This document shows positions 21,142 through 25,437 of a stretch of DNA of 64,000 nt, one piece after another. Location of the stretch: positions 2,307-66,306 of IMG/VR virus record IMGVR_UViG_3300027028_000045, one strand, 5' to 3'. Both the position numbers and the translations under genes were made by a program. This DNA comes from a virus. Below the pieces are notes generated by a model. It was not told where the DNA came from. It was given only the letters and a program-made list of their open reading frames with translations, and did not search any database. Positions within the stretch are counted from its first letter, which is position 1; every line of letters begins with the position of its first letter.

Positions 21142-21494
21142 TCGTATATTTCTACTCGCTGACGGGAAACGTACGGCGGTTCATCGCTAAGACCGGCTTA
21201 GGTGGCCAGGTACGCGAAATCAAGACGGGCAAGGTCGTAGAAGAACCGTTCGTGCTGGTAACACCGACATACGACTTCGGTCAGCCGCCCGCAACGGTAA
21301 GCGAATGGCTTAAGGATAACGGCGACTTGATGGTCGGGGTGGCAGCGTCGGGCAATCGTAACTGGGGCGACGGCTTCGGTGCGGCTGCTGACGTTATTGC
21401 GACGCTTTACGACGTGCCGGTGATCGGCAAATTCGAATTAACAGGGACGGATGAGGACGTTCAATTATTCACGGAAAGGGTGAAGGCGCTTTGA
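21138..21494 (+). CDS. nrdI: class Ib ribonucleotide reductase flavodoxin NrdI
   Basis: GTG start; YFYSLTGNVRRF, TPTYDFG, ASGNRNWG, KFELTG. Confidence 0.93.
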   Translation: MIVYFYSLTGNVRRFIAKTGLGGQVREIKTGKVVEEPFVLVTPTYDFGQPPATVSEWLKDNGDLMVGVAASGNRNWGDGFGAAADVIATLYDVPVIGKFELTGTDEDVQLFTERVKAL

Positions 21495-23578
21495 AGCGAC
21501 ACATCGAGTTAAATAACGAAATTATGATTAAAAAAGACGGACGGTTTCAATTCGAGAAAGACGAAGAGGCCGTCCGTGCTTATTTTATAGACTACGTAAA
21601 TCAAAACACCGTATTTTTCCACGATTTAAAAGAAAAGCTCGACTATCTACGCGACAACGATTACTACGAAACCGATTTTCTAGACGCTTATACATTCGAG
21701 GAAATCAAGGCGGTCTATAAAACGACTTATGCCGCCAAGTTCCGATTCCCTTCGTTCATGAGCGCATTCAAATTCTACAACGACTACGCGCTGAAGACGA
21801 ACGACCGTAAGAAGATTCTCGAACGCTACGAAGATCGCATCGCTTGCTGTGCGTTGTACTTCGGAAAAGGTGACGGCGCCAAAGCGATCGAGTTTGCGAA
21901 ACTAATGATCCGCCAGGAATATCAGCCCGCGACGCCTACGTTTTTAAATGCCGGACGCAAACGAAGAGGCGAGATGGTATCGTGTTTTCTGCTCGAAGTT
22001 AACGATTCGCTGAACGATATTTCACGCGCAATCGACATTTCGATGCAGCTATCGAAGTCGGGCGGAGGCGTTTCGCTTAACCTCTCAAAGATTCGCGCAA
22101 AAGGTGAGTCGATTAAGGACGTTGCTGGGGCGACTAAAGGCGTAGTCGGCGTTATGAAGCTACTCGACAATGCGTTCAGATATGCGGATCAAATGGGCCA
22201 GCGGCAGGGCGCAGGTGCAGCGTATCTAAACGTATTCCACGCGGACATAAACGATTTCCTAGATACGAAGAAAATCTCGGCAGATGAAGACGTCCGAGTC
22301 AAAACGTTATCGATTGGCGTTGTGGTGCCCGACAAATTCATCGAACTAGCGCGAGAAGACCGACCGGCTTACGTTTTCTATCCGCATACGGTCTATAAGG
22401 CGTACGGCACGCATTTAGACGAAATGGATATCGGCGCAATGTACGATGAACTCGTGAATAATCCGGCGGTGCGGAAGGAACGTATTAACCCGCGCCAGCT
22501 ACTCGAAAAGATGGCCGTTCTGCGTTCAGAGTCGGGGTATCCGTACATGATGTTTCAAGACAACGTTAACCGAGAGCATGCGCTGAACCATATCAGCCGC
22601 GTTAAGTTCTCGAATCTCTGTTCGGAGGTGCTTCAGGCTTCGACCGTCTCGGAATACACCGACTATGGCGAACCGGACGATATCGGCTTAGATATTTCGT
22701 GCAACCTCGGCTCTCTTAATATCGCGAATGTAATGGCGGGTGGATCGATCGAAAACGCCGTCAAACTAGCCGTCGATGCGCTGACCGTAGTTTCGGAGTC
22801 TACGAATATCAAAAACGCGCCAGCCGTCGCAAAGGCTAACCGTGAGATGCGTTCTATCGGACTAGGTGCGATGAATTTACACGGCTATCTAGCGCAGAAT
22901 GGCGTCGCGTATGAATCGGAAGAAGCGCGGGACTTTGCTAACGTGTTTTTCGCAACGGTTAACTACTGGACGTTAGTGCGCTCGAATGAATTGGCGCAGG
23001 AAACGGGATCAACATTTGAAGGCTACGAGGGATCTAAGTATGCAAGCGGAGAGTATTTCGAGATTTATTTCGAAGGTGATTACCGACCAAAGACGGATAA
23101 AGTGCGGGCACTGTTTAAAGACATCGTAATCCCGACGCCGCTCGAATGGGAAGTCTTACGCGATAACGTAAATATGCACGGACTCTACCACGCCTATAGA
23201 CTTGCGATTGCGCCTAACGGATCTATTTCGTATGTGCAGTCGGCTACGGCTTCGGTCATGCCGATCATGGAGCGTATTGAGGAACGGACTTACGGAAACT
23301 CGAAGACGTACTATCCAATGCCGGGATTATCGCCGCAAAACTGGTTCTTCTATAAAGAAGCGTACGATATGGATATGTTTAAAGTGGTCGATATGATCGC
23401 AACGATTCAGCAGCACGTCGATCAAGGAATCAGCTTTACACTATTCCTGAAAGATACGATGACAACGCGTGATCTGAATCGGATTGACCTGTACGCGCAC
23501 CACAAAGGTATCAAGACGCTTTATTATGCGCGGACGAAGGATACGGGTCAGGAAGGTTGCTTATCATGCGCGGTGTAA
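21491..23578 (+). CDS. nrdE: class Ib ribonucleotide reductase alpha subunit
   Basis: PATPTFLNAG, VSCFLL, SNLCSE, APNGSIS, C-terminal CLSC; uninterrupted 695 aa. Confidence 0.97.
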   Translation: MKRHIELNNEIMIKKDGRFQFEKDEEAVRAYFIDYVNQNTVFFHDLKEKLDYLRDNDYYETDFLDAYTFEEIKAVYKTTYAAKFRFPSFMSAFKFYNDYALKTNDRKKILERYEDRIACCALYFGKGDGAKAIEFAKLMIRQEYQPATPTFLNAGRKRRGEMVSCFLLEVNDSLNDISRAIDISMQLSKSGGGVSLNLSKIRAKGESIKDVAGATKGVVGVMKLLDNAFRYADQMGQRQGAGAAYLNVFHADINDFLDTKKISADEDVRVKTLSIGVVVPDKFIELAREDRPAYVFYPHTVYKAYGTHLDEMDIGAMYDELVNNPAVRKERINPRQLLEKMAVLRSESGYPYMMFQDNVNREHALNHISRVKFSNLCSEVLQASTVSEYTDYGEPDDIGLDISCNLGSLNIANVMAGGSIENAVKLAVDALTVVSESTNIKNAPAVAKANREMRSIGLGAMNLHGYLAQNGVAYESEEARDFANVFFATVNYWTLVRSNELAQETGSTFEGYEGSKYASGEYFEIYFEGDYRPKTDKVRALFKDIVIPTPLEWEVLRDNVNMHGLYHAYRLAIAPNGSISYVQSATASVMPIMERIEERTYGNSKTYYPMPGLSPQNWFFYKEAYDMDMFKVVDMIATIQQHVDQGISFTLFLKDTMTTRDLNRIDLYAHHKGIKTLYYARTKDTGQEGCLSCAV

Positions 23579-23940
23579 CTAAGGACGTTATTTCGAAAGG
23601 CTCTTTAAAAGCGTATGTAAATCGCAAAGAAAATTCCGTTAAAGTGGTAATAAACGATGAATTCGAGATAGTGCTTGAAGGAACGACCGACGGTATGGGC
23701 GCTAAGAAAATAATACGAAGCGGTTACTTTGAGTTGGGTGATGTGCAGGCTTTTTATGAGGACGTTAACACAAAACTAATAAAAGGAGAACTTAAAAGAC
23801 TTAGTCAGAAGCTGTCTGATATGTACGAGAATGCAGAGAAAATACCGGGATTTTTCATGTACAGCAAAGATGTTGAAAGAAAGACAGATGAAGTCGCATT
23901 CGAAATTACAAATATCAAATCACACGGAATCCCTGAATAA
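23566..23940 (+). CDS. AT-rich hypothetical protein inserted after nrdE
   Basis: 124-aa ORF; base composition shifts relative to the nrd genes. Confidence 0.6.
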   Translation: MRGVTKDVISKGSLKAYVNRKENSVKVVINDEFEIVLEGTTDGMGAKKIIRSGYFELGDVQAFYEDVNTKLIKGELKRLSQKLSDMYENAEKIPGFFMYSKDVERKTDEVAFEITNIKSHGIPE

Positions 23941-23942
23941 TT

Positions 23943-24107
23943 TTATAATTTTTTAGGGTTCGGCTGATCTTTTGATATTATCCAGGTCTTGCCTATCTTT
24001 TTACATTCAATTTTGTCGTTAGCACAGAGATTTTTTATATAACCGGGTGAAAGCCCCCACAACTCGGAGGCTTCATCTACACCCATAATTTTATTTAGCA
24101 CAGTCAT
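23943..24107 (-). CDS. small excisionase-like (HTH_17-type) DNA-binding protein, 54 aa
   Basis: Not in the ORF track; hand translation MTVLNKIMGVDEASELWGLSPGYIKNLCANDKIECKKIGKTWIISKDQPNPKKL; TAATG coupling to the upstream ORF. Confidence 0.78.
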   Translation of the reverse strand: MTVLNKIMGVDEASELWGLSPGYIKNLCANDKIECKKIGKTWIISKDQPNPKKL

Positions 24108-24355
24108 TATTGATAATACACTCCGATTCCATAAAGGTCATTAATGTGTTTGATAGTTCTTTTAGAGTAAAGTTCTTGACTACCATTATCCCATTGCACT
24201 TCCCAAAAGTCACCAAAAAAATTAGAAGTTTCAGCGATGATTTTTCCATTTCTTGCCGGGTCTTTTTCACTCTGTCCAGGACCATCTATGCTTATTACTG
24301 CTTTGCCCACCATATCATTTACGTAGTTATTAGTGAATTCGATTAATTCAGCCAT
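24107..24355 (-). CDS. small acidic hypothetical protein, 82 aa
   Basis: AAAGGAGG RBS and its own sigma-A promoter; first gene of a reverse-strand two-gene operon. Confidence 0.75.
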   Translation of the reverse strand: MAELIEFTNNYVNDMVGKAVISIDGPGQSEKDPARNGKIIAETSNFFGDFWEVQWDNGSQELYSKRTIKHINDLYGIGVYYQ

Positions 24356-24373
24356 TTTATTTCCTCCTTTAAT

Positions 24374-24427
24374 ATGCGTTATCGCATCTCTTGTTTATAA
24401 TATATCATGTGCGTTATCGCATGTAAA
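24374..24427 (-). promoter_or_regulatory. sigma-A promoter with two palindromic operators
   Basis: TTTACA-17-TATATT with an extended TG; (A/G)TGCG-TTAT-CGCAT at 24374-24387 and 24409-24422. Confidence 0.75.
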
Positions 24428-24462
24428 GGGGTTTATTAAACTTTTTTGAGGAGGACGAATAA

Positions 24463-25437
24463 TTGACGACATTTACAGCGGCCAACTGGTCGCAATCAGA
24501 CGATAATTTCACGGCTATGTTCTACGATCAGAACGTCAAGCAGTTTTGGCTACCGGAGGAAATCTCGCTTAATGGCGACCTACTCGCGTGGCACGAACTC
24601 AAGCCAGCCGAACGCGATACGTATATGAAAGTGCTCGCCGGCCTGACGCTGCTAGATACGGAACAAGGCAATACCGGCATGCCTGCGATTATGGCGCACG
24701 TAGACGGCCATCAACGCAAAGCCGTCCTTAACTTCATGGCGATGATGGAGAACGCGGTGCATGCGAAGTCCTATTCGAACATCTTCTTAACGCTGGCGCC
24801 TTCGGAAACTATTACGGCCGTCTTCGAGTGGGTTAAAGAGAACCGGTACTTGCAACGCAAAGCGAAGCTGATCACCGACCTTTATCGCGATATCAAGGCA
24901 GGTGACGATATTTCGTTGTATAAAGCGATGGTCGCTTCGGTGTATCTCGAAAGTTTCCTATTCTACAGCGGCTTTTATTATCCGTTGTATTTCTACGGAC
25001 AGGGGCGGATGATGCAAAGCGGCGAGATAATTAACCTTATTATCCGTGACGAAGCGATCCATGGCGTCTACGTCGGTTTGCTTGCGCAGGAAATATACAA
25101 CCGTCAGACGGACGACGTGAAGGCGGATTTACACGAATGGTCGGTCGGGTTATTAGCGGATCTATACGAAAACGAGGTCGCATATACGGACGATGTATAC
25201 GGAACGGTCGGCTTGGCGCATGACGTTAAGGCATTCGTTAGGTATAACGCGAACAAGGCGCTCATGAACCTCGGATTCGATGCACACTTTCCGGATGAGC
25301 TGGTCAACCCGATCGTGATTAACGGACTGAGTACGAAGACGAAATCGCAAGACTTCTTCTCGATGAAGGGCACGGGTTATAAAAAAGCGACGGCCGAGGC
25401 GCTTAAAGACGAAGATTTTTATTTTCCCGCCGATTAA
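24463..25437 (+). CDS. nrdF: class Ib ribonucleotide reductase beta subunit
   Basis: [40 protein letters not shown]. Confidence 0.97.

Follow-up and report, generated by a model that had tools for sequence, protein, structure and literature searches.

The nrdE-nrdF gap of the provirus analysed here carries a small reverse-strand operon, composed of an 82-aa cargo gene and a gene for a 54-aa helix-turn-helix (HTH) protein, which is very probably an Aca-type autoregulated module. Taken as a whole, the cassette is probably a portable, self-repressed expression unit of the acr-aca type, and by association its 82-aa cargo, a candidate anti-defence factor, stands about an even chance of being one. 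As judged from the sequences compared, the regulator likely represents a new Aca-type family of Bacillota phages.

An AT-rich island between nrdE and nrdF

The window, as we call the whole stretch of 64,000 nucleotides that was analysed, covers most of a 68,993-bp provirus record, and its closest phage is Bacillus phage vB_BauS_KLEB27-1 (OM654379), with 91% nucleotide identity. The 884 bp separating nrdE from nrdF have a GC content of 35-38%, while nrdE, nrdF and the background are at about 50%, and the alignment with KLEB27-1 ends at 23563 and picks up again at 24475, the island being missing from that phage. The features of the region are the following:

21491-23578, plus strand: nrdE, one intact 695-aa frame in the window
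23564-24474, no strand assigned: AT-rich island, delimited by the drop in GC and the alignment break against KLEB27-1
23566-23940, plus strand: 124-aa ORF of no known family, its start overlapping the end of nrdE
23817-24440, minus strand: mobile segment shared with another prophage (blastn, L006 5914-6537 against the window, 84% identity)
23943-24107, minus strand: 54-aa protein with an HTH_59/HTH_17 (excisionase-type) domain (Pfam), putative autorepressor
24355-24107, minus strand: cargo gene, 82 aa, predicted Tudor/SH3-like beta-barrel (ORF, homologues, AlphaFold2 model)
24463-25437, plus strand: nrdF

The sequence-only reading had proposed a hidden two-gene operon inside nrdE-nrdF, and the pair was confirmed, although a third gene of the island, the 124-aa plus-strand ORF, had been overlooked. 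This ORF converges on the HTH gene with a gap of 2 nt, and no terminator was found between the two convergent genes. It has 11 Bacillus homologues (64-98% identity), an Atlas feature search with it returned nothing, and it is present every time the cassette occupies the nrdE-nrdF site.

In KLEB27-1 the slot between nrdE and nrdF is filled by a different spacer of 281 bp, and in two more distant phages by other small plus-strand genes; because of this differing content the slot can be regarded as a variable insertion point. The KLEB27-1 spacer holds an unannotated ORF for a hydrophobic protein of 57 aa (L001:3662-3835, minus strand), which is perhaps a small membrane protein or toxin-like peptide. 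In related prophages (L003, L004, L009, L124 and L126) we also observed GIY-YIG or HNH endonuclease genes interrupting nrdE as intron- or intein-type insertions.

Sequencing runs related to the prophage were inspected as well. In an isolate assembly (run X2), the contigs over window positions 22800-25200 have a word depth of about 530-545, and a 14.6-kb contig of which only 71 nt match has a depth of 29, suggesting that phage DNA was far above the chromosome in abundance in this culture, via induction or lytic growth. Two raw RNA runs with the same species label contain zero reads for the region, and therefore their strain probably lacks the prophage; the metatranscriptome gave one 151-nt contig, which covers the nrdE end only.

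A sigma-A promoter with two putative operators precedes both genes

The elements upstream of the cargo gene, all on the minus strand, are arranged as follows:

24427-24422, minus strand: -35 element TTTACA (promoter scan)
24421-24410, minus strand: putative operator O1, TGCGATAACGCA, in the spacer and abutting the -35 element
24407-24399, minus strand: TG-extended -10 element, TGATATATT, with TG at 24407-24406 and TATATT at 24404-24399
24386-24375, minus strand: putative operator O2, identical to O1 (TGCGATAACGCA), 35 bp downstream of O1
24369-24363, minus strand: ribosome binding site AAGGAGG, 7 nt ahead of the ATG

The promoter scan identified a near-consensus sigma-A promoter, matching at 10/12 hexamer positions and having a 17-nt spacer and a TG-extended -10 element, in agreement with the AT-rich reverse-strand unit with a strong sigma-A promoter that had first been described. 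The two palindrome copies named in the same description were recovered in their places, O1 between -35 and -10 and O2 near the start (about +6 to +18 relative to the expected transcription start), but the palindrome is imperfect: in each 12-nt site, arms of 4-5 bp (ATGCG/CGCAT) flank a non-symmetric ATAA core. Exactly two copies of the 12-mer exist in the whole 69-kb provirus, with none elsewhere even at one mismatch, as would be expected if the regulator served its own promoter alone. That the sites go beyond chance is concluded from the comparison with other loci and not from the window alone.

This single promoter lies upstream of both genes, and the stop codon of the cargo overlaps the start of the HTH gene as TAATG. 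The coupling to an excisionase-like HTH had also been read correctly: the 54-aa protein passes the Pfam cut-offs for two families, HTH_59 (E 1.9e-9) and HTH_17 (E 7.8e-7), and the domain spans residues 1-48 of 54. The protein carries the labels phrog_2655 and phrog_1840, and its score for TIGR01764 ("excisionase family") falls below the cut-off. It is under purifying selection, with dN/dS of 0.03-0.13, against 0.15-0.27 for the cargo. A literature search on HTH_59/PF20038 found nothing relevant; the part of the AcaFinder supplement covered by the search includes HTH_17/HTH_59 candidates, and signature peptides of the window's HTH subfamily are absent from that part.

In eight cassettes (the window, L004 and L006-L011) the segment from -35 through O2 is essentially invariant, while the cargo proteins are just 70-88% identical and synonymous sites are near saturation; the flanks of the cassette are entirely different in L006-L008.

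One promoter-operator module precedes many unrelated cargo genes

With the HTH as bait, 92 further loci were retrieved from viral and genomic collections, and the 90 with an open HTH frame were analysed. An adjacent co-directional upstream ORF is present in 67 of the 90 loci, and these ORFs fall into 29 unrelated clusters. The motif [T/A]GCG-N4-CGC[A/T] occurs in 81 copies in 438 kb; 65 of them fall within the 700 nt that precede the HTH, against an expectation of about 12. In 28/90 loci two sites spaced 32-39 bp apart lie directly upstream of the first operon gene, and one layout recurs in 22 distinct promoters, namely -35, site, TG-TATATT, about 12 nt, site and ribosome binding site. The -35 element in these 22 promoters is mostly TTTACA or TTGACA, with several variants such as TTGCAA and TTGTAA.

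Under this promoter-operator module the cargo proteins, 56 to 200 aa long, belong to no fewer than ten unrelated families, so the expectation that the slot upstream of the HTH would prove variable was borne out. Their charge varies, some being very acidic and some basic (Pfam Phage_Gp111), and L087 combines a promoter near-identical to that of the window with an unrelated 81-aa cargo. The acr-aca-like architecture proposed for the window, a small gene plus an HTH gene in one operon, holds in that the layout is repeated, with variable cargo, in 28 loci; its autoregulation is predicted from the sites. Phage_Gp111 proteins (basic, 114-148 aa) are the commonest longer cargo (L036, L079, L080, L084, L098, L103 and L119), and the HTH proteins that come after them often have variable C-terminal domains; a literature search on Gp111 found nothing relevant.

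The tree of the HTH domain has two clades, with support 99/98. One of them holds all 23 operator-pair rows, including the window, together with both types of fusion protein described below, and the comparison shows that this HTH clade and the operator pair are inherited together, with the cargo being exchanged. The 32 rows of the other clade come from co-directional gene arrays with no sites, and that clade probably has a different role. Several of its members (L072, L078, L106-L108, L111 and L114) come directly after an HNH endonuclease gene and have no operator pair.

Three observations strongly suggest that the HTH protein represses its own promoter: where the sites lie, their co-inheritance with the regulator, and the fact that the genome has no further copies of them.

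HTH relatives are fused to anti-CRISPR-related domains

Two kinds of fusion connect the regulator clade with domains of anti-CRISPR type. In L066 the HTH is fused to a domain that matches the full Pfam AcrIC5 profile (E 5.6e-23) and the solved AcrIC5 structure (PDB 7yhr, E 6.3e-9); AcrIC5 itself is a validated anti-CRISPR. The operator pair of the L066 operon (2017-2845) precedes a very acidic cargo of 134 aa (net charge -17) and the HTH::AcrIC5-like gene.

In the second kind, found behind the same operator pair in L077 (2201-2647) and L038 (2201-2680), the HTH is joined to the C-terminal ~100 residues of Cas8c. For L077 this assignment is based on Pfam Cas_Csd1 (positions 452-557 of 559, E 1e-9), on TIGR01863 (positions 474-580 of 588, E 1.3e-11) and on an alignment at 30% identity with the final 100 residues of a genuine Cas8c (E 9e-16); L093, L098, L103 and L119 appear to have the Cas8c-like fusion too, given their sequence likeness to L077. 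This is the family that PHROGs lists as phrog_2655, "excisionase". The AcrIC5 fusion occurs in 1/90 loci and the Cas8c-like domain in about eight, and neither is part of the window's own cassette. A full-length type I-C Cas8c is encoded in 3/5 host genomes with such cassettes, versus 0/14 control genomes.

AcrIB4, a viral homologue of the Cas8b C-terminus, is a validated Acr thought to replace Cas11, and HTH-bearing Acrs autoregulate as autorepressors (bioRxiv 10.1101/2023.06.24.545427; 10.1101/2025.06.06.658234). In parallel to AcrIB4, the Cas8c-C-terminal::HTH fusions look, from their domain composition, like self-regulated Cas11c/Cas8c mimics.

The cargo is a small phage protein with a predicted beta-barrel fold

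The 82-aa cargo has 12 D/E and 7 K/R residues, for a net charge of -5, and no family in Pfam, PHROG, NCBIfam or PADLOC. It had been introduced as an acidic protein of no recognisable family; the counts and the missing Pfam family were upheld, but the acidity is not conserved, since the net charge is 0 in L011/L040 and about 0 in the L006 type (hand count on aligned sequences), and therefore a DNA-mimic argument fails. No similarity to known Acrs was detected in Pfam, PHROGs or the PDB, and tblastn over 50,697 deposited phage genomes found nothing.

Close homologues (67-88% identity) are encoded in prophages of B. altitudinis, B. pumilus, B. velezensis and B. amyloliquefaciens, the HTH gene coming directly after the cargo in each of them, and the pairwise dN/dS of about 0.15-0.27 indicates purifying selection. 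A library-wide search extended the set to 25 relatives, most of 67-96 aa, which have the motifs GKKV-x-GIDGPGQ, FGDFW-x-V-x-W-x-DG and GIGVYY in common. On these comparisons the cargo appears to be a small, phage-only family; a few giant repeat proteins also match it, probably via the Tudor-like core alone. The remote homologues are found without the HTH in ordinary arrays of small phage genes, one of them near a class II RNR.

An AlphaFold2 model built from 22 sequences is an all-beta barrel with a mean pLDDT of 85.9, in which residues 1-11 are disordered; the five close homologues alone had given a pLDDT of 51.6, and the model became usable once the remote relatives were added. A Foldseek search of the PDB returned nothing at E <= 0.001. 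VIA-align matched the fold to CPH/MIB-HERC2, Tudor, KOW, YorP, CarD, UvrD/PcrA and Mfd domains with Z of 4.9-6.6, values that, as the tool warns, unrelated small barrels commonly reach. The structural matches being generic and of middling Z, the fold names no function. An Atlas feature search gave weak SH3-like leads only, and the predicted complex of cargo and HTH scored 0.02, a value that points neither way.

The main rival to a counter-defence role of the cargo is that the same self-repressed module delivers a host-takeover or metabolic accessory factor, acting by docking on RNA polymerase or in nucleotide metabolism, which we consider possible and somewhat doubtful. The Tudor-like matches include domains that interact with RNA polymerase (CarD, Z 6.6; UvrD/PcrA, Z 5.5-5.7; Mfd, Z 4.9), as well as KOW, but those Z values are in the range of unrelated small barrels. 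The cassette adjoins nrdEF in one setting and dUTPase in another, and one remote homologue of the cargo is near a class II RNR; being twice beside nucleotide-metabolism genes, it could have a metabolic role, although nrd regions are general insertion hot spots, endonuclease genes interrupting nrdE in relatives. The placing of remote homologues in generic arrays of small phage genes also agrees with an accessory function, whereas the only identifiable partners of the regulator clade are anti-CRISPR-related.

As a counter-defence factor, the 82-aa Tudor/SH3-like protein would bind a host protein or nucleic acid. CRISPR-Cas is not the only conceivable target, and most hosts of the cassette, in the Bacillus subtilis/pumilus group, are not known to carry CRISPR.

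The cassette moves between unrelated prophages

The cassette was found in two contexts. One is the nrdE-nrdF site with the 124-aa ORF (L004, L005, L009-L011 and L124-L127), and the other, in L006-L008, is the interval between the dUTPase and N6/N4 methylase genes of an unrelated temperate prophage. The shared mobile segment contains the promoter, the cargo and the HTH gene; of the 124-aa ORF it takes in just the final 41 codons, retained in L006-L008 as a truncated remnant. In both prophage backbones the cassette is oriented opposite to its neighbours.

An own sigma-A promoter, an orientation against the neighbours, AT-richness and mobility between prophages are also what a prophage moron for defence or superinfection exclusion would display, with the cargo shielding the lysogen and the HTH keeping its level low, and autoregulated morons of such shape often serve the lysogen. 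We find this improbable, given that no PADLOC family was found for the cargo, that an 82-aa barrel with neither a catalytic nor a membrane feature would be an unusual defence effector, and that the identifiable partners of the regulator clade belong to counter-defence and not to defence.

A toxin-first type II toxin-antitoxin pair, in the HigBA/HicAB order, would make the cargo a toxin and the HTH an autorepressing antitoxin. Gene order, stop/start overlap and operators in the promoter are all compatible with such a pair, and there is a weak fold match to the antitoxin VapX (Z 5.2), but the 54-aa HTH is all DNA-binding domain, with no room for a toxin-neutralising part, and it pairs with at least ten unrelated cargo families; moreover, the cargo is not basic, hits no toxin family in Pfam, PHROGs, NCBIfam or PADLOC, and has remote homologues without any partner gene. 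We therefore hold a toxin-antitoxin pair to be very improbable. It fails on a defining feature, the toxin-binding part, as does a true excisionase (recombination directionality factor), an identity with next to no probability: it is prompted by the similarity to HTH_17 and the TIGR01764 "excisionase family" and by the labels of phrog_2655 and phrog_1840, but there is no adjacent integrase or att site, the neighbours being nrdE, nrdF and the 124-aa ORF, the sole candidate sites lie in the HTH's own promoter, TIGR01764 scores below its cut-off, and phrog_2655, despite its "excisionase" label, turns out to be the Cas8c-C-terminal fusion.

A model for a probably self-repressed cassette

Returning to the acr-aca type of expression unit, we postulate that the host sigma-A RNA polymerase would recognise the promoter once the DNA enters the cell, and that in the lysogen expression would stay at a low level. 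A bicistronic mRNA would give the 82-aa cargo and then, via TAATG translational coupling, the 54-aa winged-helix HTH protein, which would bind both ATGCG-N4-CGCAT sites and shut the promoter down. Bound at O1, in the spacer between -35 and -10, it would block polymerase binding, and at O2 (about +6 to +18) it would form a roadblock. This shutdown would cap the dosage of the cargo and may limit head-on collision with the transcription from nrdE to nrdF that would cross the cassette in antisense. The burst on entry and the antisense effect on nrdEF put forward in the sequence-only reading are, like this scheme, predictions.

Comparison with known systems

The closest parallel is with the acr-aca operons controlled by Aca1 and Aca2 (Pseudomonas phage JBD30 and Pectobacterium phage ZF40), in which a strong promoter is followed by one or more small variable effectors and a small HTH gene, inverted repeats lie within and just past the promoter, and, across different mobile elements, one regulator accompanies many kinds of upstream gene. 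Unlike Aca1 and Aca2, the HTH of the window is of the excisionase/MerR-like HTH_17/HTH_59 type and not of the XRE or DUF1870 type; its operator is ATGCG-N4-CGCAT, present twice and 35 bp apart, the hosts are Bacillota, and inhibition by the cargo is a candidate activity only.

AcrIIA1 and other HTH-bearing Acrs (Listeria; AcrIIC9) combine autorepressor and Acr activity in one protein, and relatives of the window's HTH are likewise fused to AcrIC5-like and other C-terminal domains, whereas the window has a bare 54-aa HTH and its effector as a separate gene. As with AcrIB4, a viral homologue of the Cas8b C-terminus/Cas11, HTH relatives carry the last ~100 residues of Cas8c, the counterpart of Cas11 in type I-C; these fusions differ from AcrIB4 in being of type I-C and not I-B, in being fused to the HTH and in being absent from the window, and mimicry is a candidate function only. 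Behind the same HTH and operator pair, the L066 domain matches the full profile of AcrIC5 (PDB 7yhr), to which the cargo of the window shows no similarity. Other small SH3/Tudor-like phage proteins, such as YorP of SPbeta (PDB 2heq) and DUF4314, are also all-beta barrels of ~70-80 residues from Bacillus phages, but YorP shares no significant sequence similarity with the cargo and its structural match is weak (TM about 0.4).

Implications for Bacillota phages

The cassette accounts for an odd reverse-strand island within an otherwise conserved nrd operon. Regulators travelling with anti-defence genes are the most productive handle on new inhibitors of bacterial immunity, and few are available for phages of Bacillus and other Bacillota. 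With its promoter-operator signature, two anti-CRISPR-type domains and at least ten cargo families, the HTH clade narrows the candidate inhibitors to a short list that can be tested. A further suggestion is that phrog_2655, annotated as "excisionase", consists instead of a Cas8c/Cas11c mimic joined to its own repressor.

A further-reaching reading, which we regard as unlikely, is that the 82-aa protein founds a new class of counter-defence proteins with a non-CRISPR target, and that the ATGCG-N4-CGCAT/HTH unit serves phages of Bacillota generally as an "anti-defence gene carrier". In a bolder variant, by analogy with the Tudor domains of CarD, Mfd and PcrA, the cargo might dock on RNA polymerase and blunt a transcription-linked defence. 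If the carrier reading were true, the ten or more cargo families and the Cas8c-C-terminal fusion would constitute a ready-made catalogue of new inhibitors.
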